The position numbers were made by a program, and so were the translations under genes. Below the pieces are notes generated by a model. It worked only from the letters and a program-made list of their open reading frames with translations. It did not search any database and had not been told where the DNA came from. DNA of 64,000 bases from Candidatus Berkelbacteria bacterium (GTDB lineage: Bacteria > Patescibacteriota > UBA1384 > 2-12-FULL-50-11), in NCBI GenBank assembly GCA_016432625.1, contig CP066697.1, forward strand, positions 215,363 to 279,362, written 5' to 3'. Positions 2,572 to 16,712 of this stretch are shown here, one piece after another (position 1 is the stretch's first letter; each line of letters opens with the position of its first letter).

Positions 2572-4803
2572 TTAAATTTTAGCCCGTTTGAGCAACAGCG
2601 AGTTTAAAACTACCGAAATTGAGCTAGCGGCCATAGCCGCGGACGCAAAGATTGGGCTTAGCAAAATTCCCCAAATCGGGAATAAGACGCCGGCCGCAAC
2701 CGGAATAAGCAGGATATTATAGCCGAATGCCCAGACCAGATTCATCCTGATTGTCCCCATAGTCTTGCGGCTTAGGCGAATTGCGGCCGCGATACTACGT
2801 AGGTCCTTATTAATGAGCGTGATGTCGGCCGCTTCAATAGCAACATCGGTCCCTGAGCCCATGGCGATGCCGTTGTCGGCAGCAGCTAGGGCTGGTGCGT
2901 CGTTGATGCCGTCGCCGACCATGGCGACATGCAAGCCTTTTTGTTGTAGTTTGCGTACCTCGAGCTCTTTGTCTTGCGGCAATACTTCCGCTAAAACATT
3001 TTGCGCTTCAACGCCAGCCTCTCGGCCTATTGCCTCAGCAACCCGTCGGTTGTCCCCGGTAATCATGTAAACTTGCAGTCCTAGCTCCCGCAGCTCTTTA
3101 ATGGCGGCTGGTGAGGTTGGTCGAAGAGTATCGGCAACAGCCACAATTCCAGCTGCTTGAGAGTCGATGCCAACTAACATAGCGGTTTTGCCTTCATTCT
3201 CGAGTTGTTCCAAGGCCGTTTCTTGATCATTAGTCAGAGCTACTTTTTCTTGCGCGAAAAGTTTACGGTTGCCGACAACTACGGTCTTTTTCCCAACTTT
3301 GCCGCGAACGCCATGGCCAGAGATTGCCTCAAAATCGCTCACCTTTTCCAATAAAAGGTTTTTATCTTTAGCCGCTTTGACGATGGCCGTTGCTAAAGAG
3401 TGTTCAGACAACGCTTCAACGGCAGCTGTGAGAGCAAGCAGCTCATTCTCCTCACGATTCCACGCCACCACCTCCGTCAGGATTGGTTCACCATTGGTGA
3501 GTGTCCCGGTCTTATCAAAAACGATAGCGGTGACTTTATGGGCGGTCTCCAACGCCTCGGCGTTTTTAATAAGAATGCCGCGCTCGGCACCCCGACCAGT
3601 ACCGACCATGATAGCCGTCGGCGTTGCTAGCCCCATGGCGCACGGACAGGCGATAATTAACACCGTAACCATGCTGAGTAAGGCGTAAGTCATTGCCGGG
3701 TCGGGACCAACAACATACCAAACCACAAAAGTTGCGATCGCTACCATAATTACTATCGGCACGAAGTAGGAGGAGATGGTATCAACCAACCGCTGGATCG
3801 GTGCCTTTGAGCCCTGAGCTTCTTCAACAAGTTTGATGATCTGTGCCAGCATTGTTTCGCTCCCAACTTTCTCGGCTACGAAAGTAAAGCTGCCAGTTTT
3901 ATTGATTGTGGCGCCAATCACAGTGTCTCCGGCTTTTTTTGTCGCTGGTATGGATTCCCCGGTTACCATCGATTCGTCGATGCTTGAGGTGCCTTCTATT
4001 ATTTTTCCGTCAACGGGCACCTTTTCGCCAGGGCGAACGATAATTTTGTCACCATGGACAACCTGGTCGATCGGTAGGTCGATTCCCTTGCCGTCGCGAA
4101 TCACCCGGGCAGTTTTAGCTTGCAGGTTCATTAGTTTTTTTATCGCCTGGCTAGTTCGTTTCTTGGCGACAGCTTCTAGATAGCGTCCAAGCAAGATGAG
4201 CGTAATAACGATGACCGAGACGTCGAAATACGGCGCGATTTCCACCCCCAGCAACGACAAAGCGCCCGGGAAGAAAGTGATAAACGCAGAATAAATATAG
4301 GCGACAGTGGTTCCAAGCGCGATCAAAGTATCCATGTTGGCGCTACGGTGGACTAAGGCGGTTATAGTGCTCTTATAAAACTGCCATCCGGCCCAAAACT
4401 GAATTGGGGTAGCTAGTAATAGTTGAAAGTAAAAGTTTTTAACAATCTCCGGAGCAGTTTCCATCACCCCGGGTACGCTTCCCCACATAACGACTAATCC
4501 AACTAAAAATCCGGCAATGATTTTTGGCTTCAAAATTTTAAGTTCACGCTCCCGCATCATTTCCTGGTGGTCGTGCTGCTCGCTGCCGGCAGGGACTGCC
4601 TTATAGCCGACCCTATTTACCGCAGCTTCTAAGTCGTGACGCGTTGCATGTTTGTGATCGTAAGCAACGGTTGCTTTCCCCGTCACTAAGTTAACATTAG
4701 CTTCGTGGACGCCCGGAACCTTAGTGAGGGAGCGCTCGATTGTCCGGACGCAGCTAGCGCAGTGCATTCCCTCGATGTTGATGGTTTCTTTTTGATGGTT
4801 CAT
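2572..4803 (-). CDS. copA: Copper-translocating P1B-type ATPase CopA with N-terminal HMA domain
   Basis: GMHCASCV metal-binding motif, CPC ([10 protein letters not shown]) in the TM helix, DKTGTLT phosphorylation motif and [10 protein letters not shown] hinge. Confidence 0.9.
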
Positions 4804-4916
4804 CAGTGGTGATGCTCCTCATTTTTACTGCGATCGGCTTTGCCTAAGAAAAACCAATAAGTCAGGATTATTAGGATAATTCCGGCTACGATGACGATAA
4901 GTTTGTCGCTAGTCAT
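4803..4916 (-). CDS. Unannotated 37-aa single-TM peptide ending in HHH ([37 protein letters not shown]), translationally coupled between copZ and copA
   Basis: ATG at 4916 lies 4 nt inside the copZ stop, and its TGA overlaps the copA ATG (TGATG). Hydrophobic core followed by a basic/His3 tail. Below the 60-aa ORF-track cutoff. Confidence 0.45.
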
Positions 4917-5148
4917 GACTTACCTCGGCTTTGTAACCGCTCGTTTCTTCTATCGCTTTGATTACGTCTTCGACGCCCAATTTATTCTCGTCGAATACAA
5001 TTTCGGCGGACTTTTTACCTAAGTTAACCTCAACGCTGTTAATTGCGTCGTAATCCTCCTCCAAAGTTTCTAGCAGCATAACGCAGCTGGCACAGTGGAC
5101 ATCTGGTATATAGAATCTTTGTTTTGTCATCGTTGCCTCCTCATTCAA
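4909..5148 (-). CDS. copZ: Copper chaperone CopZ (HMA domain)
   Basis: HCASCV metal-binding motif in a ~70-aa ferredoxin-like HMA fold. The true start is probably M7 (MTKQRF). Confidence 0.8.
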   Translation of the reverse strand: MNEEATMTKQRFYIPDVHCASCVMLLETLEEDYDAINSVEVNLGKKSAEIVFDENKLGVEDVIKAIEETSGYKAEVSHD

Positions 5149-6298
5149 ACAATATTTGTCCGGTGTACATACCCATTGAGCAGCTGAAACGCAGCCGACC
5201 CTTATCTTGGGCGGGGATATTTATTGTCTCACGGCCAGTTTCCGGTAGAACCTTTTGGATCTTCAAGCTTGGAATTACAAAGGCCCTGCTACAACTGAAG
5301 GTGTCTTTGGTCACTAACGTCAGCCTTGTCGGTACGCCTGCTTTGGCTTTCAAGATGTTTGGCTCGTAACCATCTTCCTGAACGCTAATTGTTAACTTCT
5401 GTTCACTCTGGGCTGCGTCATTCACTTGCTCATTAGCTTTAGTTTGTTGGGCAATTTCGGTTGAGCCAATTGTATCGACCGGCGTATCGAGCCACTGTTT
5501 ATAGGCGGCATACGAGACTGGTGAGCCAACGAGATTAAGACCACTTTCAAGCGAATAGAGGCTGAAGATCAACACCAACACCGCTACTATTCTTACGAAG
5601 TATTTATTCAGGCTTTCGCCAAGACGAGTCGTGAAATAGGCAAGGATAAAGAACAGGGGAGAAGCGCCGAGCGTAAACGAGAATAGTATCAACGCTCCTG
5701 CAACGGGGCTACCCGTACCGAGCGCTAAGGCCATCATCGCCTGAGTAATACCGCACGGGATTAGTACCGTCAGAGCACCTAAAAAGATTGGTGTAGCGTA
5801 ATCTTCTTTGGCATTTTTACTAAAACGGCGGATAAAGCGGCGAATAAACTTTGGTGGTTGAATCTGGAAATAATTAAAGAACGGATGAACATTTAACAGC
5901 CGCAAGGCTGTTCCAAGCATAAAAATAGTAATAGCGAGCATTAGAACTCCGCGCATAACGGGCGTCAGTTGAAGCATTGTGCCGAGCCACCCTAAGCCAA
6001 GCCCTAATAATGTATAAGCAACAATTTTAGCGGCTAAGAATAGAACGATCGATAGAGTGATATCGCTGCGAAAACTTCTTGGCGCTCGCGGCTGTTCCTG
6101 ATGATGCTCGTAGAAGTTAATTAAGTCGTGTTTTGACATATGGGCCGGGTCAACTCGGTTCTCTTTAGGCTTATTTGGCTTAAACTCATCTTCGGCTTGT
6201 TTAGCGATCACATTAGCCAATAGCCCACCTTGAACGGCTAAACAACTAAGGCCGCCTGTAGTAAGGCCAGTCAAAAATATCACCCACAAATTTGGCAT
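5141..6298 (-). CDS. Polytopic membrane permease fused to a C-terminal cupredoxin-like domain (probable copper-handling protein)
   Basis: About 8 predicted TM helices with conserved Cys (GGLSCLA, LIPCGIT). The C-terminal ~90 aa resemble the cupredoxin_1-type fold, with two FSCS motifs and MGMY. Sits between arsR and copZ. Confidence 0.55.
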   Translation of the reverse strand: MPNLWVIFLTGLTTGGLSCLAVQGGLLANVIAKQAEDEFKPNKPKENRVDPAHMSKHDLINFYEHHQEQPRAPRSFRSDITLSIVLFLAAKIVAYTLLGLGLGWLGTMLQLTPVMRGVLMLAITIFMLGTALRLLNVHPFFNYFQIQPPKFIRRFIRRFSKNAKEDYATPIFLGALTVLIPCGITQAMMALALGTGSPVAGALILFSFTLGASPLFFILAYFTTRLGESLNKYFVRIVAVLVLIFSLYSLESGLNLVGSPVSYAAYKQWLDTPVDTIGSTEIAQQTKANEQVNDAAQSEQKLTISVQEDGYEPNILKAKAGVPTRLTLVTKDTFSCSRAFVIPSLKIQKVLPETGRETINIPAQDKGRLRFSCSMGMYTGQILFE

Positions 6299-6624
6299 TA
6301 TTTACTCACCCCTAATTCGTTCAGGAGGCTCTTGGTGAACTCGTTACTTTGCATGGTGTAGTAAACAGTTTGAGCATCCTTACTGGAACTTAGAATGTCT
6401 GCTTTCTTTAGCTTCTTTAACTGCCGGGATGCGGCTGAAATAGAAATACTGACGAGCTCTGCAATTTGGCCGACGGACAATTCCGGATAGTGTCGAAAGA
6501 GATAGCAAATCTTCATAGCCGTGGGGTCGCCAATAGTCCCGTGACGCCGCGCACACGCCTTAACGGCTTCACTGTCGGTAATCTCCCTCTTGATGTTGGC
6601 CAAGTTCTTACTGGCACGCATCAT
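6298..6624 (-). CDS. ArsR/SmtB-family metalloregulatory transcriptional repressor
   Basis: Winged HTH (LSVGQIAELVSISISAASRQLKKL) typical of ArsR/SmtB. First gene of the copper operon. Confidence 0.8.
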   Translation of the reverse strand: MMRASKNLANIKREITDSEAVKACARRHGTIGDPTAMKICYLFRHYPELSVGQIAELVSISISAASRQLKKLKKADILSSSKDAQTVYYTMQSNEFTKSLLNELGVSK

Positions 6625-6652
6625 GAATTGATTCTAATTAATGAGTAAGCAT

Positions 6653-6702
6653 GTATTTGCATGTATACGCAAATACTAACCTTGCCTGTAATTGCGTGTC
6701 AA
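6653..6702 (-). promoter_or_regulatory. Candidate arsR-copA operon promoter: -35 TTGACA (6702-6697), -10 TAGTAT (6678-6673), overlapped by the 8-8-8 inverted repeat GTATTTGC-ATGTATAC-GCAAATAC (6653-6676)
   Basis: Near-consensus sigma70-like hexamers are read on the minus strand. A perfect 8-bp inverted repeat overlapping -10/+1 fits ArsR/SmtB operator architecture. Confidence 0.4.
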
Positions 6703-6769
6703 GGAAACTACGTTACTGCCAGGAATTGACTTTGACTATGGTTCTTGATTAAATACGCCAATCGGAGGT

Positions 6770-7297
6770 GTGCGCTTGCAGCACTTTAAGAACATCGGGG
6801 CAGGACTGCTGATTTTAGCCGTCTTCTTCGCCCTTATCGTCGTCATGAAGCCGGCGGCGCGGGCAAAACGTCCGAACAACTCCTCGGGAGAGCCGGAGCT
6901 ACTCGTTCTCGACACCAAGGAAACGCCGGAGGTGAGCTACCTACCAACGGGCACGATCGAAGTTCGTTTCGACAAGCCGTTGACGATCAGTTCGGATTTC
7001 CTGGTGGGAATTGGCCAAACGAAGTCAGTTCGGGACATGGAGCTTAACAAGTCGACCGTAACGGTTCACGCCGAAGGGTCGAGTGTGAAGCTCAAGCAAA
7101 AGGGTGCCTACTTCGTTATGATCTTCACTCGCAACCTTGAAGGCAAACCCGACACCGGGACTGCTGTCCGTGTAATGATCATCATCGGCCCTTGGCCTCA
7201 CCCGGTTAACCGCAAGTTACTTCGCCCTGTTCCTGATTGGATCCGTCTCAGCAAAGCCCCACATCGGGGCTTTTCTTTTGGAGGTGGTTTGTTCTGA
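6770..7297 (+). CDS. Membrane-anchored secreted hypothetical protein (possible beta-sandwich, CopC-like; unproven)
   Basis: N-terminal TM/signal anchor; no recognisable catalytic motifs; transcribed divergently from the copper operon. Confidence 0.35.
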   Translation: MRLQHFKNIGAGLLILAVFFALIVVMKPAARAKRPNNSSGEPELLVLDTKETPEVSYLPTGTIEVRFDKPLTISSDFLVGIGQTKSVRDMELNKSTVTVHAEGSSVKLKQKGAYFVMIFTRNLEGKPDTGTAVRVMIIIGPWPHPVNRKLLRPVPDWIRLSKAPHRGFSFGGGLF

Positions 7298-7318
7298 GCT
7301 TGTCGAAGAGCGGCGAAC

Positions 7319-7882
7319 TTACTTCCAGACTAATATCGCTCTCCCTGTATAGCAGTCGTTGAACTTATCGTACGGGACTAAACCAGCTTTCCAATTCTGC
7401 TCAGCAACTTTAGAAGTGTGGTTAACGTAAAATCCTTCATCGTCGTATCCAACCACTACTGCTAAATGGCCACCGAACCTTTTCCAGAAAAGTATTTTTT
7501 CTATTAACAACTTGTTGTTCTTGAACGCCCACTTGATTGAAACGATTGGAAGCTTCTTTTCTTCAAGCGCTTTTTGCAATTCTTTAGTTGAAAGTGTTTT
7601 TCGCTCAGCGTGGAGACCCAATTTTTCAACCAGGCGAACTAAGCCCTCATGTTTCCATCCGTACTCCTCTGAGTAGCCGCCGAGTTCTTGGCCTTGTTTT
7701 ATTAGGCTCGACGTAGAATATTTTGTTTCGTTAAGAAACGAAGCAATCTCATTTACACAAAGGATCCCGCAGCACGAACGCTCCCAGTATTCCGCATCAT
7801 CTCGCGAACTAAATCCTAGCTTTTTCCATTCGTCCAAATTCCAATTTTGTGAATAAAGCGGAATTTCGTACAGAACTTTCAT
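7319..7882 (-). CDS. Stand-alone C39-like (papain-fold) cysteine peptidase domain protein
   Basis: Cys-rich SCCGILC motif and downstream GGHLAVVVGYDD, consistent with a Peptidase_C39_2-type catalytic Cys/His. Confidence 0.45.
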   Translation of the reverse strand: MKVLYEIPLYSQNWNLDEWKKLGFSSRDDAEYWERSCCGILCVNEIASFLNETKYSTSSLIKQGQELGGYSEEYGWKHEGLVRLVEKLGLHAERKTLSTKELQKALEEKKLPIVSIKWAFKNNKLLIEKILFWKRFGGHLAVVVGYDDEGFYVNHTSKVAEQNWKAGLVPYDKFNDCYTGRAILVWK

Positions 7883-7889
7883 TTTTTTG

Positions 7890-7961
7890 GGTGGCTAACG
7901 GGAATTGAACCCATATCAAGGGGACCACAACCCCACGTGTTACCATTACACCATAGCCACC
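7890..7961 (-). tRNA. tRNA-His (GTG) with encoded G-1
   Basis: Cloverleaf with acceptor GTGGCTA/TAGCCAC, G-1 pairing with discriminator C, and anticodon loop TTGTGGT. Confidence 0.85.
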
Positions 7962-7974
7962 ATGCTTTTAAGCT

Positions 7975-8005
7975 GGTGGTTATGCCCGAACGGGATATAG
8001 CCACC
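7975..8005. repeat. tRNA-His acceptor-stem-like minihelix hairpin (TGGTGGTTAT...ATAGCCACCA)
   Basis: Shares GGTGGCTAT/ATAGCCACC with the adjacent tRNA-His acceptor stem. Could be a tRNA remnant or a terminator. Confidence 0.4.
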
Positions 8006-8029
8006 ATGCTGCGTTATTATATAACGCCG

Positions 8030-8102
8030 CGCGCCCGGAGGGATTCGAACCCCCGACCCTCTGGTCCGAAGCCAGATACTCTATCCACTGAGCTACGGGC
8101 GC
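8030..8102 (-). tRNA. tRNA-Arg (TCG)
   Basis: Acceptor GCGCCCG/CGGGCGC, D-arm TAGCTCAGTGGATAGAG, anticodon loop CTTCGGA. Confidence 0.85.
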
Positions 8103-8161
8103 AAATCAACGAGCACAAACAAATGTACAGCGGCCGGAGCTAAGTGGAACGACACTCGGAG

Positions 8162-8182
8162 TATCCACTGAGCTACGGGCGC
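8162..8182. repeat. 21-bp exact duplicate of the tRNA-Arg(TCG) 5' end (TATCCACTGAGCTACGGGCGC), 80 bp from the gene
   Basis: Identical to 8082-8102; partial tRNA copy. Confidence 0.6.
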
Positions 8183-8282
8183 TTGTCGTCCAATTTTCCC
8201 ATAAATTGCCCTACTAATCTAGGAGATTAGGCCAAGTATCTAGATTTCGACTGCGAGCGATTGCGAGAAGTGAATTTCGTTT

Positions 8283-8705
8283 TTAGAATTCAATTTTTTG
8301 TTTTTTCCAGCCGAATAGCGGCTCGTAGATGATGTCGATGAATTTCGGTGAAAGTTTGTACCATTTGTGATTATCATCAATGTGATCGTCAGGTAAGTGG
8401 TATTTTGCTAGATAATTCTTAGCTAGTTGTTCGTCTTGATTGACTACCGTGACTGTCCCGGCAATCTGTAAGCCAGCTGCTTTGTGATCGGGCGTATCAA
8501 CCATGATTGCCGCTGCCGCTTGCGGCGCTAGGTCAACGGCCCTCGAGTGTCGTACTACCGGCATTGAGAGCCAATAGATATTCATCGCCTCGTCATGAAT
8601 GTAAATGAGCGGGCTGACCCAAACGCCACCGTCGTCGTTTGTGCCGAGATGGATCAAGCGGCCTTGTTCTAATAATTGCTGAGCTAGCTTCTTTAAATCT
8701 TCCAT
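8283..8705 (-). CDS. Pyridoxamine 5'-phosphate oxidase-like FMN-binding split-barrel protein
   Basis: Size (140 aa) and sequence pattern typical of the PNPOx-like family; weak call. Confidence 0.5.
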   Translation of the reverse strand: MEDLKKLAQQLLEQGRLIHLGTNDDGGVWVSPLIYIHDEAMNIYWLSMPVVRHSRAVDLAPQAAAAIMVDTPDHKAAGLQIAGTVTVVNQDEQLAKNYLAKYHLPDDHIDDNHKWYKLSPKFIDIIYEPLFGWKKQKIEF

Positions 8706-8766
8706 AGATTCAATAATACTCCCACGCCTGGAGGGCGGGAAGTATCCAGAGTAGAATTACGTCGTT

Positions 8767-8843
8767 GCCCTCGTAGCTCAGTGGATTAGAGCGTTGGTTT
8801 CCGGTACCAAAGGCCACAGGTTCAAGTCCTGTCGAGGGCGCCA
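8767..8843 (+). tRNA. tRNA-Arg (CCG), CCA encoded
   Basis: Acceptor GCCCTCG/CGAGGGC, anticodon loop TTCCGGT, 3' GCCA. Confidence 0.85.
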
Positions 8844-8880
8844 GTAGGGGGCGATACCACTTTAATTTTTCGCACAGCTA

Positions 8881-9582
8881 CTAGTGATTATGGTGTGGGC
8901 AGAATTTAGCGTGATCGCCGATCGCTTCGTTAGTTAGTTTACCGTCCTCGATTGTTACTACCCTGGTGGCGATATCCCGAAGGCGTTGGTCGTGGCTGAC
9001 GATCACGACCGACTTATGTTCCTGACAGGCTATTTCACACAGTAATAACATAACTGAATGGCCATTTTTCGAGTCGAGGTTAGCGGTCGGCTCATCGGCA
9101 AGAATGATTGGCGGATTGTTTATTAGCGATCGAGCGACGGCGACTCGTTGGCGTTCGCCACCCGAGAGTTCTTTAGGCTTGGCGTGAAGACGATTTTGCA
9201 AGCCCAGCCTGTTCAATAACTCTAAGGCGCGCTTGGTGTTGCGGTTTTTGCCAAACCCGGCAATGACGACGTTTTCAAAGGCGGTTAGATTGTCGAGTAA
9301 GTTAAAAGACTGAAAAATAAAGCCGATCTTTCCTCTGCGCAACATCGTCAGTTGTCCTTGGCTTAACTTTGAGATTGGTTGATCGGCAATAAATATCTCA
9401 CCGGCTGAGGGACTAAGTAGCCCGCCCAACATCGTCAGCAGCGTTGTCTTACCGCTGCCTGACGGCCCGATAATCAAGACAATTTCACCCGGTTCGATAC
9501 TAATACTAACGCTCTCGACGGCTTTCACCTCGGTGTGTTGCCGGGGATTAAACGTTTTAGATAATTCGGTGGCTTTGATCAT
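8881..9582 (-). CDS. ABC transporter ATP-binding protein (MacB/LolD-type)
   Basis: Walker A GPSGSGKTT, Q-loop, ABC signature LSGGERQRVAVAR, Walker B ILADEPT. Confidence 0.85.
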   Translation of the reverse strand: MIKATELSKTFNPRQHTEVKAVESVSISIEPGEIVLIIGPSGSGKTTLLTMLGGLLSPSAGEIFIADQPISKLSQGQLTMLRRGKIGFIFQSFNLLDNLTAFENVVIAGFGKNRNTKRALELLNRLGLQNRLHAKPKELSGGERQRVAVARSLINNPPIILADEPTANLDSKNGHSVMLLLCEIACQEHKSVVIVSHDQRLRDIATRVVTIEDGKLTNEAIGDHAKFCPHHNH

Positions 9583-9584
9583 CG

Positions 9585-10682
9585 TTAGGCTTTAAAGACT
9601 GAGGCGGGGTTAATCACCAGTAACCGCTTCAGTGGCATAAACGAGGCGATAATAGCCATCCCGACCACGGCGGCAAATACTAAAATGACCTGTCCGCCAC
9701 TAACTTCGTACAAAAATCCGCTAGCAATATTAGTGGCGGCGATCGCAAAAAGTGGCGCTAGTATCGCTCCCACAACAAAACCAATCGCTCCGGCTGTAAC
9801 TGATTGAATCAGTCCGATGCCGTATATTTGGGCGCCAGTGTAGCCGAGGGCTTTTAGGACCCCATACTCCCGACTTTTCTCGATGGTAGCGGTAAAGATA
9901 GTTAAGCCGATGACTGCTATGCCAATTAGAACAGCGATAATTAGCAGAACCTTAATGATGGGTAGGAATGTTTCAGTGAGAATAGATTTGTTGTTTTCCA
10001 GAAACTCAGTCTTCGTCATAACTTTGTAGTCGGGAAATTGCTTGGCGATATCAATCGTGGCCTGGTCGGGATCGGGTGTCTGTACGAGGTAGTAATTTAC
10101 TAGCCCATCTAGATCAAGGATGTTTTTAACGTCCGCCCGGTTAACCAGAGCGAAGGTGTAGGCGAGAATGTTACCGCCGCTAATAATCCCCGATACTTTG
10201 ACTGTGGTTTTGGCCACTTCAAAAGTGTCACCGATTTTAAGTCCGGTTTGACGGGCTAATACTTGATCGATAGCGATCTCGCCTAGTGCCGGGTCGTCTG
10301 TGCCTTCGACAAGCTCGTAACTCTTTATGAAGCGATCCTCGTCAACACCAACAACGAAAATATGAACGTCTTGGCCGTCAATTGTTGTCCCAACCTGGCG
10401 GCCGACAAATGTTGATACCCGAGTAACAGACCCTAGCTTAGAAACGTCTTCCGATCGGACCGCTTGGATAATTGAGATGCTATGGCTGAGATCACCACTG
10501 CCGGCCTGACCGACCCAGAGGTCGGCGGGGATATTGCCCGTGAACCTTGTCATTTGTTTTTCCCAACCGCTATATAACCCGAGTAGTATCAAGATCAGAA
10601 TCACCGAGAAGGTGACGCCACCTATAGTGATCAACAGCCGGCCTCTTTCGCCGAAAAGGTTCCTTAGCGCGATGAGAAACAT
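9585..10682 (-). CDS. ABC transporter permease, FtsX/MacB family
   Basis: N-terminal TM, large periplasmic MacB-like domain and C-terminal FtsX 3-TM bundle; 4-nt gap to the ATPase gene. Confidence 0.8.
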   Translation of the reverse strand: MFLIALRNLFGERGRLLITIGGVTFSVILILILLGLYSGWEKQMTRFTGNIPADLWVGQAGSGDLSHSISIIQAVRSEDVSKLGSVTRVSTFVGRQVGTTIDGQDVHIFVVGVDEDRFIKSYELVEGTDDPALGEIAIDQVLARQTGLKIGDTFEVAKTTVKVSGIISGGNILAYTFALVNRADVKNILDLDGLVNYYLVQTPDPDQATIDIAKQFPDYKVMTKTEFLENNKSILTETFLPIIKVLLIIAVLIGIAVIGLTIFTATIEKSREYGVLKALGYTGAQIYGIGLIQSVTAGAIGFVVGAILAPLFAIAATNIASGFLYEVSGGQVILVFAAVVGMAIIASFMPLKRLLVINPASVFKA

Positions 10683-10710
10683 ATGTTTACAGTAGTCCCC
10701 GAATAGTTAT

Positions 10711-10739
10711 TTGACAATCCCCCCAGGGGGGACTAGACT
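10711..10739 (+). promoter_or_regulatory. Promoter with embedded CsoR-like box: TTGACA - ATCCCCCCAGGGGGGAC (17 nt) - TAGACT
   Basis: Consensus -35 hexamer. The 17-nt spacer is a perfect C6-A-G6 inverted repeat. Oriented toward the DsbD-like gene at 10872. Confidence 0.45.
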
Positions 10740-10871
10740 CGGGTTGATGGAAATTTGCGACTGCCCAACAGTTTCGCAGGTTAGGACATACAGAGTCCTT
10801 GTTGGGCTGGCTATAATAGGATCCCTTCTGTCGTACCTCGGTAGTCAGGTCGCCGTATTATTGCTGGCGCA

Positions 10872-11747
10872 ATGACCCTGACTTTGTTTATCTTTTCGCT
10901 AACGAGTGCGTTTCTAAGTGGCTTATTGGCATTATTTGCCCCTTGCTGTATCACGTTTCTATTACCTTCCTACTTTGCTTCCGTTTTCCAGAGAAAGAGC
11001 AATATCATCTTTATGACCTTAATATTTTTCTTAGGGTTAACGACAATCCTTCTGCCGATTAGCCTAGGTGCAGCTTGGCTTTCTGGTCTATTCACTGGTT
11101 ATCACACTGCCATTTTTATCGTAGGTGGGTTACTTTTGATCGCCTATGGAATAATGTCCTTCTTCGGTAAGACGGTAATGATTCCACTTCATTACACTCC
11201 AGATTTGAAGCGATCCAGAGGTGTTTTCGGAACGTATCTTCTGGGTATATTCTCGGGCATAGCCAGCTCCTGCTGCGCGCCAGTTTTGGCTGGTTTGCTT
11301 ACCCTGTCGGCCTTATCGGCCACGCTACCGGTCGCTACACTAATCGGCCTCACTTACGTCTTAGGAATGACATTGCCGTTATTTATCCTGTCGCTCGTTT
11401 GGGATGCGAAAAAGATTGGGCAATCGAAATTTTTCAGGGGACGTCCAATCCGCTTCCAGCTTGGCGGTTGGCGGCATGTTGTTCATTCAACCCACCTATT
11501 GGTTAGCATTCTTTTTATCGCTATTGGCGGCTTCATTCTCTACAGCGCAGCAAACGGCGAATCGGCGGTTGCTGCGCCCTGGCAGATAAGACTTAATGCT
11601 AACTTCCAGGGGGCAATTCAAGACTTTGCCAACTTTGCCGCACGTTACCCGCTCCTTAGCTTGACGGCCTTTATATTGCTTATTACCGGCTGGGTGTTGT
11701 TAGTGCGAAAAGCCACAACGGCGTCAAAGGAGAAAAATGAAGCATAG
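10872..11747 (+). CDS. DsbD/CcdA-family thiol-disulfide transporter-like membrane protein (Cys doublets APCC and SSCC)
   Basis: Polytopic TM protein with Cys in TM1 and a mid-protein TM, as in CcdA/DsbD beta-domain proteins; overlaps the downstream TlpA-like gene. Confidence 0.5.
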   Translation: MTLTLFIFSLTSAFLSGLLALFAPCCITFLLPSYFASVFQRKSNIIFMTLIFFLGLTTILLPISLGAAWLSGLFTGYHTAIFIVGGLLLIAYGIMSFFGKTVMIPLHYTPDLKRSRGVFGTYLLGIFSGIASSCCAPVLAGLLTLSALSATLPVATLIGLTYVLGMTLPLFILSLVWDAKKIGQSKFFRGRPIRFQLGGWRHVVHSTHLLVSILFIAIGGFILYSAANGESAVAAPWQIRLNANFQGAIQDFANFAARYPLLSLTAFILLITGWVLLVRKATTASKEKNEA

Positions 11748-12330
11748 CGGAAAGAGTAGCGATCTCTTGTTTACTATTGGTGTAATCGTGGCGGTGGGCA
11801 TCGTCTTGACGGGGATCGTTATCTTTTCTAACGGCAGACCTTCTACCCCCCTTGCGAAGACTGGTTCGCTTAAGATAGGCGATTCGGCTCCAAGCTTTGA
11901 ACTTGCTTCGGCAACGGGTGGAAAGGTCACCTTGAATCAGTATGACGGCAAACCGGTGCTGTTGTACTTTAACGAAGGTGTTGGATGCCAGCCGTGCTGG
12001 AAACAGATTATCGACCTTGAAAACAATGAGAGCTTTAGCTCCCTCAAGATTCCAATGGTGGCAATTGCACCTAACGACCCGAGCGATTGGAGTCCGGTAG
12101 TCTCAAATAACCCTATGCAAACGCCGATCTTGGCCGACATTGAGAATGCCGTTTCAAAGTCCTATGGCATGTTGACCATGAAGTCGTCTATGCACAAGGG
12201 CGTCAACCCAGGCCACACCTTTATCCTGCTTGATGCAGAGCATAAGGTAACCTGGATCGGCGACTACCCGGGAATGAACATGACCGCTTCTGAAATAGTA
12301 ACTGTCATTAAGGACAAGATACGAGGTTGA
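11737..12330 (+). CDS. Membrane-anchored TlpA/ResA-like thioredoxin-fold oxidoreductase (CxxC = CQPC)
   Basis: N-terminal TM anchor, then redoxin domain with VGCQPCWKQ active site. Confidence 0.7.
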   Translation: MKHSGKSSDLLFTIGVIVAVGIVLTGIVIFSNGRPSTPLAKTGSLKIGDSAPSFELASATGGKVTLNQYDGKPVLLYFNEGVGCQPCWKQIIDLENNESFSSLKIPMVAIAPNDPSDWSPVVSNNPMQTPILADIENAVSKSYGMLTMKSSMHKGVNPGHTFILLDAEHKVTWIGDYPGMNMTASEIVTVIKDKIRG

Positions 12331-12404
12331 CGGTTTGGGGGCGACGGCTAATTTTAGTCAATGAATTAGTGTGACTCTGTTTAGGAGGAGGTAGCGCACT
12401 TCCA

Positions 12405-13577
12405 CTACGGGTAAATATATGTTGGAGTGCCGTAAAGCAACGCGTTAACATTGCGCCTTTCGCCATATCCACGTGGTACTAGCCAGTTGTATTCCGAAAC
12501 GTTAATTGTTCCGTCGCTATTAACTTTCTCTACCCAGGCTGTATGGCCGTAAGGGCGGTTCTCGCCAATTGGCCAGGAAACCACTGCCCCAACCCTGGGC
12601 GTTGAAGATGTTTTATAACCTTGGTCACGAGCGAGCGCTGGCCAGTTCCAACCACTGCCGGACCCAGGTCGCGTGTTCATAAACGGCTGACCGTAGGTAA
12701 CAAGCCACTTCCAGGCAGTATATGAAACGCATTGCCTTTTAATGAATAGCCACGGGTCAGCCGCCGCAGGGTTTGGTTCATCCGCGTACGGATAGGCGCT
12801 CGTCGCGCCCTGATTTATATTTTCCGAACCAGCCTGTCGTCGCCGAGCTTCATAAATGGACTGGCTTAGCGTTTCGTGTTCAGTGGCTAATTTTTTCAAT
12901 GAGTCTTCGTAGCGGTCTTGCTGCTCTTGGTTCAGGTTCAGCAGCAAACTTTGCTGTTGTTGCTGACTCGCTAATACGGCTTTATCATTTGATAATAGGC
13001 TCTCGACTTCTTCCAGCTGTTGTTGAAGAGCTACCTGCGAAGCTTTTTTGGCTAGTAGTTCCTGTTTAAGAGCACTTAACTTTTGTCCATCCTGCATTAA
13101 TTGCTGCTGTATAGATTCTAGATAGTTTATGCGCGTCGTGTATTCACCTATGCTTTCAGACGTCAACATAATCACTTTCGAGGTCGTCAGGGTCTCGTAA
13201 AGTAATATGTAAAGACGCCGAGTAGAGCCGTCGAGTTTGGCAATATCTTTCTCGGTTTTCTCGACCTCTCCGTCGATCCTTTCTATCTCTAATTTGGCAA
13301 TATTAAGTGTTCTCCTAGTCGTATCGAGTCGTCCTTGAGTGGAGGCGATGTCCTGCGTGAGCGCGTTTAGCGTCTGCTGCAACGTAAGTTCGACCTTCCG
13401 GCTCTGGTTAAGCCTTTGTTGGTTCTGCTGCTGTTGTTTCTCTACTTCTCTTTGTCGTTTCAAGAGCTCGTTTAATGAAACAGCTTGGGCAGATAGTGGA
13501 GCAGATAGTAAGGTGATTACTAACGCCAGAAAACCAACCGACTTAACAAATATTCGCTTCCCCCTCCTTGGAGGCAT
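12405..13577 (-). CDS. Secreted coiled-coil protein with C-terminal CHAP peptidoglycan-hydrolase domain (PcsB-like architecture)
   Basis: Signal peptide; ~230 aa of Q/E/L-rich heptads; C-terminal CHAP with catalytic Cys (CVSYTAWKW) and His (YGHTAWVE). Confidence 0.7.
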   Translation of the reverse strand: MPPRRGKRIFVKSVGFLALVITLLSAPLSAQAVSLNELLKRQREVEKQQQQNQQRLNQSRKVELTLQQTLNALTQDIASTQGRLDTTRRTLNIAKLEIERIDGEVEKTEKDIAKLDGSTRRLYILLYETLTTSKVIMLTSESIGEYTTRINYLESIQQQLMQDGQKLSALKQELLAKKASQVALQQQLEEVESLLSNDKAVLASQQQQQSLLLNLNQEQQDRYEDSLKKLATEHETLSQSIYEARRRQAGSENINQGATSAYPYADEPNPAAADPWLFIKRQCVSYTAWKWLVTYGQPFMNTRPGSGSGWNWPALARDQGYKTSSTPRVGAVVSWPIGENRPYGHTAWVEKVNSDGTINVSEYNWLVPRGYGERRNVNALLYGTPTYIYP

Positions 13578-13837
13578 TAGTTTTGAGAAAGGTGGTAGAG
13601 GTGTGATAGCTCATTAATAGCCTTGCTGTCCTCACCACTGACAAACTGATCTTTCACGCAGGTAGCCAGATGTTTCTTAAGCAACTCCTGGTTCAAGCTT
13701 TTAAGACTCTTCTGGATCGCTAGGCTTTGTGTCATAAGTTCGATGCAGTACCGGTCTTCCGCTACCATCTTCTGCAGTTTCAGGATATGCCCCTGAATAA
13801 TTTTTATTCGATGTCTAATTCGTTCGTCTTGTGTCAT
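13577..13837 (-). CDS. csoR: CsoR-family Cu(I)-sensing transcriptional repressor (Cys-His-Cys site)
   Basis: DUF156 helical-bundle family. The ligand pattern RYC ... H-x3-C (HLATC) matches Cu-sensing CsoR rather than RcnR. Start taken at M13 (MTQDER); the stop overlaps the CHAP gene ATG. Confidence 0.75.
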   Translation of the reverse strand: MTQDERIRHRIKIIQGHILKLQKMVAEDRYCIELMTQSLAIQKSLKSLNQELLKKHLATCVKDQFVSGEDSKAINELSHLYHLSQN

Positions 13838-13841
13838 GAGT

Positions 13842-13872
13842 ATATTTATAATCCCCCTATAGGGGATAGTCA
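13842..13872 (-). promoter_or_regulatory. csoR promoter with CsoR-like box: TTGACT (13872-13867) - ATCCCCTATAGGGGGAT (13867..13851; plus strand ATCCCCCTATAGGGGAT) - TATAAAT, ATG 6 nt later (near-leaderless)
   Basis: C-tract/G-tract pseudopalindrome forming the 17-nt spacer; same architecture as the 10711 promoter. Confidence 0.5.
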
Positions 13873-13919
13873 ATTCCTTTTTGTTGTGAGACTATGAGTT
13901 CAATAAGAAAGGGGCTTAG

Positions 13920-14060
13920 ATGATGGGAATGAACGCGGATATGATGAGCGGCGGGCTGGGGGGCGGCATGATGGTATTTGGGTGGCTTCTTTACCTACTG
14001 TTCGTTGTGGCTCTTGTTTTGTCGGCAATTGCGCTAGGCAAGTACATCGGCAAGAATTAG
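13920..14060 (+). CDS. Unannotated 46-aa Met/Gly-rich membrane peptide (MMGMNADMMSGGLGGGMMVFGWLLYLLFVVALVLSAIALGKYIGKN)
   Basis: RBS AAGAAAGGGG 6 nt upstream of ATG. N-terminal MxxM/MM motifs followed by one TM helix. Divergent from csoR, 53 nt from the CsoR-like box. Confidence 0.4.
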   Translation: MMGMNADMMSGGLGGGMMVFGWLLYLLFVVALVLSAIALGKYIGKN

Positions 14061-14122
14061 GGCAGCAAGGGGCCGTGGTTTCCCGGTAGGGGCAAGAGAG
14101 CCTCGCGTGTTAAAGTGAGTAT

Positions 14123-14671
14123 ATGCATCATCGGTGGAGATATCCGAACATCACCCTACTATTTATCAGCTTGGCCGTGACGGTTTTTCTGCTCAATAAC
14201 GGCTGGTTGGGGCATCTGAAAGATGGTTTTGAATCTATAGGCTATCTCGGCGTTTTTGTTGCTGGGTTCTTATTTGTCTCTACATTCACAATCGCGCCAG
14301 CGGCCGCTATTCTCTTTGAATTTGCGCAAAACCTCGAGCCAATATTCGTGGCTCTTATTGGTGGCGTTGGCGCGGCGATAGGCGATTACCTCGCCTACAG
14401 ATTCATTAGAGACCGACTGTTTGCCGAGCTTAACCCTCTTCTCAAAGCCCTTCATTTATATCGGCGGATCGACATCCTTCATACGAAGTATTTTGCTTGG
14501 TTGGCGCCGGTAATCGGCGCAGCGATAGTCGCCTCACCGTTACCTGACGAGATTGGTCTTAGCTTGCTTGGTTTGAAAAAGATCGCTTTCAGCCGCTTTA
14601 TCGCCTTGGCCTTCCTGCTCAACGCTTTAGGGATATATGTCATTGCGATTGCTGCTAATTCAGCCCCCTGA
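14123..14671 (+). CDS. Polytopic membrane protein, unknown function
   Basis: Four to five predicted TM helices; no confident family assignment. Confidence 0.35.
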   Translation: MHHRWRYPNITLLFISLAVTVFLLNNGWLGHLKDGFESIGYLGVFVAGFLFVSTFTIAPAAAILFEFAQNLEPIFVALIGGVGAAIGDYLAYRFIRDRLFAELNPLLKALHLYRRIDILHTKYFAWLAPVIGAAIVASPLPDEIGLSLLGLKKIAFSRFIALAFLLNALGIYVIAIAANSAP

Positions 14672-14692
14672 ACTTCGTGGTAGGATGTAACC

Positions 14693-15169
14693 ATGAAAAT
14701 ACTTGGGCAGGTCATTGTTGTCTTGTTGGTTGTCGGGGGAATAGTTATTTACAGCAATCGCTCTGGTGATAGCGGAGCTTCTCCAGGTCCGCAAACACAG
14801 TCCGAATCTTCGACGGCAGATCCGTCGCTCGGCGGGTCAACTGACCCTTCTGTAGCTAAAACTCCCGGCGCGTACGTCGATTACTCGGACTCGGTCATCG
14901 CAAGCACCAGTGGAACCAAGATACTTTTCTTTCATGCTCCTTGGTGTCCGCAATGCCGGACACTAGACGCTGATATTAGAAAGAGTAACGTTCCGGCGGG
15001 AGTGACAATAATTAAAACGGACTACGATACTAACCAGGCGCTTCGGCAAAAATACGGCGTGACGATCCAAACGACCTTAGTTAGGGTTGACGACGCCGGT
15101 AACCTGGTCAAGAAATATGTCGCTTACGATGAACCCACCTTTGCCGCCGTCAGTAGTAACCTGCTTTAG
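14693..15169 (+). CDS. Membrane-anchored thioredoxin-family protein (WCPQC)
   Basis: N-terminal TM, Ser/Thr/Pro linker, thioredoxin fold with the canonical WCPQC motif. Confidence 0.7.
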   Translation: MKILGQVIVVLLVVGGIVIYSNRSGDSGASPGPQTQSESSTADPSLGGSTDPSVAKTPGAYVDYSDSVIASTSGTKILFFHAPWCPQCRTLDADIRKSNVPAGVTIIKTDYDTNQALRQKYGVTIQTTLVRVDDAGNLVKKYVAYDEPTFAAVSSNLL

Positions 15170-15171
15170 AA

Positions 15172-15894
15172 ATGGTGTTACTTTATGCCTCGTTTGTCGC
15201 TGGTTTCCTTACCGTCTTGGCGCCGTGCATCTTGCCGGTTTTGCCGGTGGTTTTAGCCGGATCGGTAACAGAAAGCCGACGCACGAAACGTATTGTAACG
15301 ATTATTTTTGGCTTGACGATTTCAGTTGTTGTTTTCTCGTTACTCTTGAAAGCGACAACTAGCCTGCTCGGAATTCCACAAATTGTTTGGCAGCTAATTT
15401 CTGGCGGGATACTAATTCTCTTCGGAGTGGTCAGTCTCTATCCAGGGCTTTGGGAAAAAGTCTCGGCACCGCTCGGCGCTAAGGCGGGTGAGTCGTTGCA
15501 GACCAGTAGAACCAAATCTGGTCTTTGGGGGGATTTATTCCTTGGAGCAGCGCTGGGGCCGGTCTTCAACAGCTGTAGCCCGACATACGCCTTAATAGTC
15601 GCGGCGATTTTGCCTGTTTCGTTCGGGCGTGGACTTACTTATTTGGTATCTTACGCGATCGGTCTGGCCGTGGCGCTACTTTTAATCGCCTTCCTTGGCC
15701 GGGCACTAGTTAGCAAACTTGGCTGGGCTGCCAACCCAACAGGCTGGTTTCATAAAGTAATTGGCGTGTTACTAATAGTGATTGGGCTGGCTGTCATCTT
15801 TGGCGCCGACAAGAAGTTTCAAACCTATGTGCTTGATCGGGGCTACTATCAACCGATAATAAACTTAGAAGAACAACTTCGTTTACCGAAGTAA
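15172..15894 (+). CDS. ccdA: Cytochrome c-type biogenesis / thiol-disulfide transporter CcdA
   Basis: Six TM helices with conserved Cys in TM1 (APCILP) and TM4 (NSCSP); starts 3 nt after the thioredoxin gene. Confidence 0.75.
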   Translation: MVLLYASFVAGFLTVLAPCILPVLPVVLAGSVTESRRTKRIVTIIFGLTISVVVFSLLLKATTSLLGIPQIVWQLISGGILILFGVVSLYPGLWEKVSAPLGAKAGESLQTSRTKSGLWGDLFLGAALGPVFNSCSPTYALIVAAILPVSFGRGLTYLVSYAIGLAVALLLIAFLGRALVSKLGWAANPTGWFHKVIGVLLIVIGLAVIFGADKKFQTYVLDRGYYQPIINLEEQLRLPK

Positions 15895-16058
15895 TTCATT
15901 CTCTAAACTACCCCATCAAGCTTGGTCGTCTGAACGCTTACCTCAGTTATTTAAGATAACTATGTGTGCCCGAAATAAAGCACACTTAGGGCGATACTTG
16001 AAAAGTTAGTAGATCTAACGCACTCTGGGGCTACGGTTTTGTACCGAAGGAGGCTCAC

Positions 16059-16712
16059 GTGTATGTGAATCAAAGCGAGCGACGCATCATGATGCTTTGC
16101 GAGCAGCATGACATCATTTCGCGTGGCCACTTCAAGATTAAGGGGTTCCACAGCGACATTTTCATTGATCTTGAACGAGCGTTGTCACTTGCGCCCGTTC
16201 GCGACGAGTTCTGCGAAGCGATCACCCAAAACTGCTTGGATCGCAGCACCGACAACAGCGGTAGGCACGATACCAGTATCGATATCGTCATTGGTATCGG
16301 CAGGCGTGGGCTGACTATCGCCGATGCTGTCGCCAACCAGCTTAGGGCGTTGACGCATCGCCAGGTAATATCGCTTGAGGCGATAAAAGAAGACGGGATG
16401 GTTGCGTTGCCGATTAGCGGACGACGACTGATTCGTGGTCGGAACGTGTTGACAGTGATGGATATCGTCCGAACGGGGAGCACTGCTGCGAAGGCGGCCG
16501 ATTTGATTACGTCGAACGGTGGCAATAACTGTGGTTTGTCAGCCTTTTTCCGCCGAGGGGAATTGGCGGATTACGACGGCCACGGACGGCGGCCGTTCGT
16601 CATTTGCAACCCGAGCTTCGAGCTCTGGACGACCGCATGTCCCAAGTGTCAACAAGGAATTCCTTTGGACCCAATACCTAGATCTCGTGAGCAACTTGCT
16701 CTCGAGTTCTGA
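16059..16712 (+). CDS. Phosphoribosyltransferase-domain protein (orotate PRTase-like)
   Basis: PRPP-binding motif VLTVMDIVRTGSTA; GTG start 5 nt after SD AAGGAGG. Confidence 0.55.
   Translation: MYVNQSERRIMMLCEQHDIISRGHFKIKGFHSDIFIDLERALSLAPVRDEFCEAITQNCLDRSTDNSGRHDTSIDIVIGIGRRGLTIADAVANQLRALTHRQVISLEAIKEDGMVALPISGRRLIRGRNVLTVMDIVRTGSTAAKAADLITSNGGNNCGLSAFFRRGELADYDGHGRRPFVICNPSFELWTTACPKCQQGIPLDPIPRSREQLALEF

Follow-up and report, generated by a model that had tools for sequence, protein, structure and literature searches.

Does the CsoR-family regulator encoded in a 64-kb stretch of a Candidatus Berkelbacteria metagenome-assembled genome (candidate phyla radiation, CPR/Patescibacteria) govern a copper response, and which of its neighbors take part in that response? 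In this stretch, hereafter the window, csoR lies among genes for thioredoxin-fold and CcdA-type proteins and two C/G-tract palindromes (boxes 1 and 2; Table 1), all of which coordinates, Pfam matches and a pattern search placed where the original prediction had described them. On balance, we favor the view that the window carries a two-arm copper-defense island, in which an ArsR-type arm acts on efflux, and a CsoR arm acts on a CcdA-like conduit with its redoxin (module 1), on csoR together with a CHAP hydrolase, and probably on an ABC (ATP-binding cassette) transporter and a small Met-rich peptide. A second CcdA/thioredoxin set (module 2, a trio of genes) most likely stands apart from it. The argument is built on sequence features, promoter geometry, conservation and gene linkage, which are observed directly in the window and in loci from other genomes (cited by number, L001 and so on).

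Module 1 is the part of the predicted CsoR regulon that is best supported by these comparisons. Box 1 fills exactly the 17-nt spacer between the hexamers TTGACA (10711-10716) and TAGACT (10734-10739), the best sigma-70-like site in the region. The orthologous CC-CcdA promoter in L001 reads TTGACA-GTCCCCCCGGTGGGGAT-ATACTG, that is, the box is kept though the flanks differ. The csoR promoter, on the minus strand, is laid out in the same manner [TTGACT (13873-13868), box 2 as the 17-nt spacer, TATAAA (13850-13845), 7 nt, ATG 13837], as is its counterpart in L001 (TTGACA-CTCCTCCAAGGGGGGAT-TATAAC), where the box is degenerate. The two L001 promoters thus indicate that the box-in-spacer design is conserved while flanking sequence differs. 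The original placement of module 1 behind box 1 is borne out both by this conservation and by the occurrence of the module in csoR and copper-ATPase clusters of many other genomes.

Judged by its alignment with Thermus CcdA (5VKV, E-value 6e-10), CC-CcdA is a genuine homologue of CcdA: a CcdA redox Cys is matched by the first Cys of each doublet, with PCC aligned to PCV and SCCAP to PCIGP. In Pfam, it does not reach the gathering score for DsbD_TM or DsbD_2 (PF02683, 17.5 bits against 27.1); many members of the family carry a precomputed PF02683 match. Both doublets are invariant in all 72 locus-derived homologues, even though the SSCCAPV doublet was not used in locus selection, and 118 of the 120 top database homologues have both, the two exceptions being truncated at the N-terminus. 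The AlphaFold2 (AF2) model of CC-CcdA has a pLDDT of 76.6, and a Foldseek search of PDB with this model returned only non-significant MFS and ZIP matches (E-value at least 0.07). A His triad in the C-terminal part (WRHVVHSTH), considered as a metal site, was discarded as not conserved outside Berkelbacteria.

The partner gene, whose start overlaps the CC-CcdA end, encodes a redoxin with an N-terminal anchor (PF00578, E-value 7e-20; PF08534, 8e-14; NCBIfam ResA subfamily, 1e-9). A metagenome scan for CC-CcdA, seeded with two N-terminal peptide patterns, yielded 80 loci (66 unique), with neighboring genes assigned by tblastn using window-derived queries. A redoxin partner adjoins CC-CcdA in 34 of the 66 unique loci, and either a redoxin or an anchored DUF1573 protein does so in 50. 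The redoxin partners contain a single CxxC throughout (38/38), nearly always as CxPC (36/38), and all 20 DUF1573 partners contain (S/T)CxCT. In the 26 loci of at least 8 kb, a P-type ATPase of the predicted heavy-metal class is present in 17 and a CsoR-family gene in 10; the DUF1573-type loci of this length encode the ATPase in 8 of 8 and CsoR in 7 of 8. A single-protein contig scan gave one locus, L014 (Berkelbacteria RIFCSPLOWO2_01_FULL_50_28), in which CC-CcdA, 83% identical to that of the window, lies in a one-direction cluster with the order CsoR paralogue, CC-CcdA, CQPC redoxin, Met-rich DUF305 protein, P-type ATPase, and ABC pair. The L014 CsoR is a non-orthologous C-H-C paralogue (29% identical) with a palindrome of its own, TACCTATACC-TAG-GGTGGAGGTA.

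Table 1. Features discussed in the text, in window coordinates
Feature	Coordinates	Strand	Remarks
copA (P1B-1)	2572-4803	-	copper efflux operon
copZ	4909-5148	-	copper efflux operon
DsbD_2/cupredoxin membrane protein	5141-6298	-	copper efflux operon
arsR	6298-6624	-	first gene of copper efflux operon
MacB-type ABC ATPase	8881-9582	-	same operon as permease
MacB-type ABC permease	9585-10682	-	divergent from box 1
Box 1, predicted CsoR operator ATCCCCCCAGGGGGGAC	10717-10733	.	exact match to ATCCCC-N5-GGGGAY
CC-CcdA, CcdA-family membrane protein with vicinal Cys doublets (APCC, SSCCAPV)	10872-11747	+	PDB 5VKV match
Membrane-anchored TlpA/ResA-like redoxin, CQPC	11737-12330	+	PF00578; start overlaps CC-CcdA end
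Secreted coiled-coil CHAP peptidoglycan hydrolase	12405-13577	-	PF05257; coupled to csoR
csoR, 86 aa, Cu(I)-type (Tyr30-Cys31, His56, Cys60)	13577-13837	-	PF02583
Box 2, predicted CsoR operator ATCCCCCTATAGGGGAT (minus strand ATCCCCTATAGGGGGAT)	13851-13867	.	csoR promoter
Met-rich single-transmembrane peptide, 46 aa	13920-14060	+	divergent from box 2
182-aa membrane protein	14123-14671	+	trio
Anchored WCPQC thioredoxin	14693-15169	+	trio; PF00085
CcdA	15172-15894	+	trio; PF13386

Alternatively, module 1 could be a MerP/MerT-like route for thiophilic metals rather than a disulfide-reducing relay, with the CxPC redoxin or the CxC DUF1573 protein capturing Cu(I) and handing it to the Cys pairs of CC-CcdA for sequestration or for transfer to an efflux ATPase or the ABC pump. 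We consider this somewhat unlikely. It would account for the family-wide invariance of both Cys-Cys doublets, where ordinary CcdA has single cysteines, and vicinal Cys pairs are found in transmembrane helices of MerT and MerF. Compatible with a metal route, too, are the tight linkage of the module to heavy-metal ATPases, YHS/TRASH, DUF305 and Met-rich proteins and the nature of the alternative partner DUF1573, which carries SCxCT, not a classical redox motif, and exists also as a selenoprotein form with UGC (PMC9312934). However, the homology of CC-CcdA to an electron transporter is clear, with the catalytic cysteines in register; the usual partner combines CxPC with the AhpC-TSA/Redoxin fold of TlpA/ResA reductases; and copper import under copper stress would bring no obvious benefit. 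We prefer to read module 1 as a reductive relay within the CsoR arm.

Two further features of this region were noted. The CC-CcdA leader of the window (10740-10871) extends for ~126 nt after the boxed promoter, compared with ~10 nt in L001, and holds a perfect TATAAT (10812-10817) without a good -35; an Rfam scan of positions 10400-16200 (E-value up to 1) gave no match, so that the leader is not a known riboswitch. Following the redoxin gene, L014 encodes the Met-rich DUF305 protein (7520-8050), and a 61-aa open reading frame (ORF) at the same position in L001 (6235-6420) looks like a truncated N-terminal remnant of such a protein, which has been lost entirely in the window.

At box 2, the translational coupling of csoR to a coiled-coil CHAP gene, proposed originally, is evident from the sequence TAATG, in which the csoR stop codon overlaps the CHAP start codon. 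The CHAP domain spans residues 280-364 (E-value 4.6e-19); QCVSY and YGHTAWV motifs (catalytic Cys and His) are seen in the sequence, and the N-terminal half is coiled-coil-like. The match to the NCBIfam PcsB equivalog is partial, with 59.2 bits against a cut-off of 450. The same association recurs in L004, in an operon with the order HMA-DsbD_2-cupredoxin, copZ, copA, csoR, DUF1573 (CDC), CcdA-like, coiled-coil CHAP, and DUF2933, where the CHAP protein is 33% identical to that of the window over its full length. The csoR-CHAP link is therefore seen in two lineages.

The Met-rich peptide encoded on the other side of box 2 is probably a further member of the regulon, as judged from the company of its homologues. 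Its family includes 22 representative homologues of 38-68 aa, mostly 42-48, with the consensus MMG..MMSGG.GG.MM.FGWL.YLL....L.L.IAALWKYI.K; positive charges at the C-terminus imply that the N-terminus should face outward. Homologues occur in four other copper clusters, which agrees with the copper context predicted originally: one precedes the ABC pair in L001, one lies close to DUF305 in L004, a third is encoded divergently from a boxed redoxin promoter in L030, and a fourth lies within the boxed csoR operon of L033 (csoR, peptide, YHS/TRASH protein, CC-CcdA, redoxin, FtsX-like). Box 2 lies ~55 bp upstream of the peptide gene, which has a clear AAAGGGG ribosome-binding site. Direct control of this gene by box 2 is suggested by the company it keeps in copper clusters, not by geometry.

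The MacB-type ABC operon, missed in the first description, is probably part of the system as well. Its promoter [TTGTCA (10717-10712), 17 nt, TACTGT (10694-10689), 6 nt, ATG] has its -35 abutting box 1, the same geometry, with a box abutting the -35 of a divergent promoter, as in L016 and L018. The ABC pair adjoins CC-CcdA and the redoxin in four lineages (the window, L001, L014, and L033). The ATPase has a conserved C-terminal tail, H-x-x-[FY]-C-x-H-H, represented by GDHAKFCPHHNH in the window (8881-9582), GEHNKYCAHHTSQDKH in L001 (7936-8655), and GQHQQFCEHHSDSNKS in L014 (11465-12184), which may bind or sense metal on the cytoplasmic side of this type VII ABC transporter.

How far the CsoR arm extends beyond the peptide gene depends on the trio downstream, which the original prediction had counted as a second copper-controlled relay. 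If box 2 also drove a promoter for the peptide gene and transcription read through into the trio, both thiol relay modules would be copper-inducible. This full regulon was retained as an alternative because no terminator is predicted between 14060 and 14123, leaving read-through from the peptide gene as the only tie of the trio to box 2. The four genes lie on one strand with a gap of 62 nt; the -35 of the trio is degraded in the window (TAGGGG, compared with TTAGAA in L096 and L010), which could make the trio depend on upstream transcription; and the boxes abutting -35 elements in L016 and L018 appear to serve divergent promoters. We nevertheless regard such an extended regulon as unlikely. 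The trio, whose 182-aa protein has hundreds of CPR homologues, stands alone, unaccompanied by csoR, box or peptide, in at least four related lineages, namely L008/L009 (77%), L010/L011 (66%), L095, and L096 (80%). Its promoter there is TTAGAA-17-TAAAGT-6-ATG (L096 and L008; TAGAGT in L010), and the window retains both this -10 (TAAAGT, 14111-14116) and the leaderless spacing of 6 nt to the ATG. No promoter matching the consensus was found over box 2 for the peptide gene, and insertion of an island between bipA and the trio (see below) explains the adjacency. Thus, by comparison with these relatives, module 2 is most likely a CPR-wide core housekeeping operon that is only physically adjacent, and the CsoR arm, as we read it, ends with the peptide gene.

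A -10 element placed only 6-7 nt ahead of the start codon was observed for csoR (13838-13850), the macB-like permease gene (10683-10694), the 182-aa gene (14111-14122), and arsR of L001 (5866-5880), which suggests that leaderless mRNAs are common in this lineage.

Sequence matches, including those to solved structures, support the assignment of the DUF156 protein as a Cu(I)-type CsoR, in line with the copper sensor of the original prediction. The ORF listing starts csoR at TTG 13873, which is almost certainly wrong because box 2 would then lie inside the gene, whereas ATG 13837 gives a CsoR of normal length. The protein matches PF02583 (DUF156, Trns_repr_metal) with 72.7 bits against a cut-off of 22.8 (E-value 3.4e-20), and the closest structures in PDB, 4M1P (Geobacillus), 2HH7 (M. 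tuberculosis), and 4ADZ (Streptomyces), with E-values of 7e-12 to 1.5e-10, are all copper sensors. Cys31, His56 and Cys60 align with their Cu(I) ligands and Tyr30 with the second-shell Tyr, reproducing the x-C-H-C fingerprint (Cys36/His61/Cys65 in M. tuberculosis numbering); the RYC and INELS segments correspond to RYC/AYC and the conserved Glu in the solved CsoRs. The second-shell Tyr and Glu are established parts of the allosteric network of M. tuberculosis CsoR. A separate alignment with reference sequences gave the same C-H-C and conserved Glu, and neither the CstR-type pattern (no His) nor the RcnR-type pattern (C-H-H) was seen in it. Among NCBIfam models, RicR is the top match, ahead of RcnR and FrmR, with 52 bits against a cut-off of 175.

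CsoR-family proteins with other effectors exist, and one member controls sulfur-oxidation genes in Thermus (PMC10318464). The protein of the window could accordingly sense persulfides or thiol oxidants (CstR/TTHA1953-like), nickel or cobalt, or an aldehyde, so that the regulon would be a general envelope thiol-stress response. The thiol-based nature of the target genes fits this idea, as does the presence of C-H-H or C-Y-C in place of C-H-C in the nearest of the more distant homologues. Against it stand the complete Cu(I) set (Cys, His, Cys plus Tyr and Glu), retained in orthologues at 78-100% identity, the lack of an N-terminal His for Ni/Co coordination, the ranking of RicR/CsoR above RcnR/FrmR among family matches, and an operator of the G/C-tract CsoR type (PMC10318464). 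Orthologues and paralogues also lie in or beside copA/copZ operons: in L001-L003, csoR (80% identical product) is back-to-back with an arsR-DsbD_2/cupredoxin-copZ-copA operon and convergent with a CC-CcdA/redoxin operon. A different effector is accordingly quite improbable, and we retain copper as the likely signal of the CsoR arm.

Outside the orthologue group, the nearest CsoR homologues have altered ligand sets (L004; P0007-P0018). The L004 csoR (5883-6140) encodes Cys...Tyr-Leu-Thr-Cys with a one-residue deletion, yet is located within a copA operon. Members of a Saccharimonadia-type group show C-H-H (NHLKTH or NHISEH) and are encoded beside an HMA-less P-type ATPase and a TRASH protein.

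By position and recurrence, the two boxes look like genuine CsoR operators within promoter cores. Allowing at most one mismatch, the pattern ATCCCC-N5-GGGGAY occurs in the window only at boxes 1 and 2, both with no mismatch; this count is circular because the pattern was built from those boxes, so that their position and their recurrence elsewhere carry the weight. Among the 97 loci compared, the exact pattern recurred at just two kinds of site, the CC-CcdA promoter orthologous to that of the window (L001/L002) and the region upstream of a csoR homologue (L033). Related C/G-tract boxes lie upstream of csoR in L007, L016, L018, L021, L027, L028, L033, and L039, and a C/G box precedes the redoxin gene in L030. 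In L007, the promoter TTGACA-ATACCCCTAGGGGGTAC-TACCAT lies ahead of csoR (product 52% identical to the window CsoR) and genes for a TRASH protein and a P-type ATPase. In L016 and L018, a single box lies between divergent TTGACA hexamers, one serving csoR-ATPase and the other CC-CcdA-redoxin. A generic palindrome detector (7-nt arms with CCC/GGG) found strict boxes upstream of 7 of 18 csoR genes (1.3 expected) and directly upstream of 6 of 62 CC-CcdA genes (6.0 expected); both figures are rough, as the detector was too permissive (0.37 hits per kb over the fetched loci) and missed interrupted boxes such as that of L014.

Two other palindromes were rejected as boxes. CCCC-N5-GGGG has three copies in the window (0.46 expected), and the third (7257; AAAGCCCCACATCGGGGCTTTTC, 7252-7274) is a bidirectional terminator-like hairpin between convergent genes. 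The long-spaced palindrome ATCCCCGTGGCAAGCCAACGGGGTAT upstream of the L001 peptide gene has the wrong spacing, and similar hairpins are repeated nearby.

The original prediction had raised the possibility that the boxes are absent from orthologous promoters, which does not hold, the same box being present at the CC-CcdA promoter of L001. That both palindromes are chance or lineage-specific features (hairpins or repeat remnants) with no regulatory role is barely credible: although loose C/G palindromes are common in the fetched loci and the third copy in the window is merely a terminator hairpin, each box sits exactly in a 17-nt promoter spacer, box 1 persists at an orthologous promoter despite changed flanking sequence, and the exact pattern is confined, among the 97 loci, to cognate promoters, with the excess of strict boxes upstream of csoR pointing the same way.

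The efflux genes form the other arm. As originally described, copA lies behind an ArsR-type gene; no C/G box was found at the arsR-copA operon promoter in the window, and hence no sign there of CsoR control over the efflux ATPase. The ArsR protein matches the ArsR/SmtB family (E-value 1e-15; HTH_metalloreg model NF033788, 57 bits against a cut-off of 55), and an inverted repeat, GTATTTGC-N8-GCAAATAC (6653-6676), overlaps the arsR -10 (TAGTAT, 6673-6678, minus strand); the promoter core is conserved in L001. A lone TGCAAATAC half-site is present, in addition, in the spacer of the L001 ABC-operon promoter (~9770-9790). A link of ArsR-type regulators to copper has been suggested for Clostridium copZ (PMC4938975). 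Two tiers of copper control, as inferred originally, are therefore plausible in this lineage, with copA lacking a box and an ArsR-type gene in first place, but are not general: relatives place csoR beside or within copA operons, and L069, L084 and L091-L094 hold csoR, DUF1573, CC-CcdA and copA in one cluster. The DsbD_2/cupredoxin protein, co-transcribed with copZ and copA, has 385 aa, comprising a membrane domain and a C-terminal cupredoxin-like domain; HMA-extended versions are found in L004.

From gene order, the copper genes at 2572-14060 look like an inserted island beside the trio. The L010 genes run DEAD helicase, BipA, trio, PfkB ... DUF5665, VTT (L010 5878-8001), whereas in the window everything from copA to the Met-rich peptide lies between BipA and the trio, and in L001 the copper genes likewise follow BipA. 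Comparison of these three gene orders shows copper genes behaving as an island in a variable spot. In relatives, bipA/typA and the trio are directly adjacent or separated by other cargo, e.g., tRNA genes in L012. No GC anomaly was detected across the island.

We propose the following mechanism, in which DNA binding, the response to copper and all biochemical roles are inferred from sequence. In the first arm, an ArsR-type repressor would head the copA/copZ/DsbD_2-cupredoxin efflux operon. In the second, copper-free CsoR would, by homology, bind boxes 1 and 2 and occlude both promoters, occupying the CC-CcdA/redoxin promoter at box 1, where the divergent ABC -35 is abutted, and the csoR-CHAP promoter at box 2, with autoregulation as the outcome. 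Binding of Cu(I) to Cys31, His56 and Cys60 would release CsoR, and the induced products would all act outside the membrane. The CC-CcdA conduit may supply reducing power to the anchored CxPC redoxin, which would keep exported cysteines reduced or repair copper-catalyzed disulfides. The additional coiled-coil CHAP (cysteine) hydrolase may replace or back up copper-poisoned wall hydrolases. For the anchored Met-rich peptide and the ABC transporter, binding or export of Cu(I) is the probable role. The simplest interpretation is a copper-triggered program that keeps exported thiols reduced and restores wall hydrolysis. Consistent with such a role, copper induces dsbDEG in P. aeruginosa (bioRxiv 10.1101/2020.08.17.255257), and copper forms non-native disulfides and inhibits Cys-dependent LD-transpeptidases (PMC9302775).

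Several observations weigh against this scheme. The box scan covered 64 kb of a 768-kb genome, and CPR promoters were predicted from a sigma-70-like consensus. The CC-CcdA start lies 139 nt downstream of box 1 in the window compared with ~20 nt in L001, and a second, box-free promoter in the leader is conceivable. On the strand of the peptide gene, no convincing sigma-70-like promoter overlaps box 2, and the ABC promoter, with TACTGT, resembles the consensus only weakly. Metal binding would explain the invariant vicinal cysteines and the CxC partners just as well as electron transfer would. The L004 CsoR (56% identical) lacks the His ligand, and L004 has no obvious C/G box despite its csoR-CHAP link; many CC-CcdA/redoxin loci, mostly on soil contigs, have no csoR or box within reach.

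Canonical CsoR regulons (M. tuberculosis cso, B. subtilis copZA, Thermus copZ-csoR-copA, and those of gut Firmicutes) share with the window a small all-helical DUF156 repressor with Cys-His-Cys Cu(I) ligands, a G/C-tract pseudopalindromic operator over the promoter, and autoregulation (PMC10318464, PMC4938975); the Thermus operator is a G/C-rich pseudopalindrome with the site CCCCACCCCACCTGGGGTGGGG (PMC10318464). Such regulons consist essentially of csoR and copA with or without a chaperone, which make up >90% of regulated promoters in gut Firmicutes (PMC4938975). In the window, by contrast, copA is unboxed behind an ArsR-type gene, and the boxed promoters would drive the CcdA-like/TlpA-like pair, CHAP, and probably the ABC pump and the peptide. 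M. tuberculosis RicR resembles this arrangement: its CsoR-family Cu sensor has no coupling to the efflux ATPase and serves accessory defense genes, with two copper regulators side by side (PMC9302775). The RicR targets, however, are a metallothionein, a multicopper oxidase and small proteins, compared with a thiol-disulfide relay and a wall hydrolase here; the second regulator in the window is ArsR-type, not another CsoR, and the RicR model score is far below its cut-off.

Thiol-disulfide relays tied to copper are exemplified by Salmonella ScsABCD, which is under envelope-stress (CpxR) control, and P. aeruginosa DsbRS-DsbDEG. Both combine a DsbD/CcdA-type conduit with a TlpA/DsbE-like protein and are copper-induced and envelope-protective (bioRxiv 10.1101/2020.08.17.255257; PMC3322552, ScsB). 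They belong to diderm Proteobacteria, and DsbDEG is under the copper-sensing two-component system DsbRS (bioRxiv 10.1101/2020.08.17.255257), whereas the window pairs a predicted cytoplasmic CsoR repressor with a minimal CcdA with vicinal Cys doublets, in a CPR bacterium. Monoderm CcdA with ResA/TlpA/Etrx shares the fold class, the redox Cys positions (Thermus CcdA), and an overlapping gene for an anchored CxPC redoxin. CC-CcdA differs in the second invariant Cys after each active-site Cys, in a C-terminal extension of ~110 aa, and in its context, which is copper resistance and not cytochrome c maturation or Met-sulfoxide repair; in this genome, module 2 supplies the ordinary CcdA/thioredoxin pair. 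The CHAP protein shares with PcsB of the PcsB-FtsEX system a signal peptide, a long coiled coil, a C-terminal CHAP domain and the partial model match, and a type VII (FtsX/MacB-fold) ABC transporter is encoded nearby. Yet that match is weak (59 vs 450 bits), the permease has a MacB periplasmic domain and not the FtsX extracellular loop, and the CHAP gene shares an operon with a metal-sensor gene.

The apparent second relay module, a housekeeping operon beside an inserted island, illustrates the caution that adjacency calls for. A textbook CsoR regulon consists of sensor, pump and chaperone; here, the sensor seems to have parted from the pump and to serve extracytoplasmic thiol chemistry and wall hydrolysis instead. 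Defense of envelope cysteines is known from Proteobacteria (Scs, DsbDEG), and the window would extend it to another regulator and a minimal cell plan. In the literature, we found no description of a CsoR-controlled CcdA/TlpA pair, which, given incomplete coverage, is weak evidence of absence. The original prediction regarded such a regulon as unusual so far, which was overstated, as the arrangement of csoR, CC-CcdA and a CxxC or CxC partner is widespread in CPR-type metagenomic contigs. It is possible, and we suggest it only tentatively, that CC-CcdA with a CxPC redoxin or CxC DUF1573 protein, the ~45-aa Met-rich peptide and the MacB pump with its Cys/His tail constitute an undescribed, widespread, CsoR-controlled copper defense of the envelope in CPR and other uncultured bacteria that either conducts reductant in a copper-proof manner or relays Cu(I) thiolates across the membrane; this lineage would add a spare wall hydrolase of the cysteine type, to protect cell division from copper poisoning. 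The CC-CcdA family is labeled "cytochrome c biogenesis protein" in organisms without cytochromes c, and its copper-resistance company offers a concrete lead to its function.

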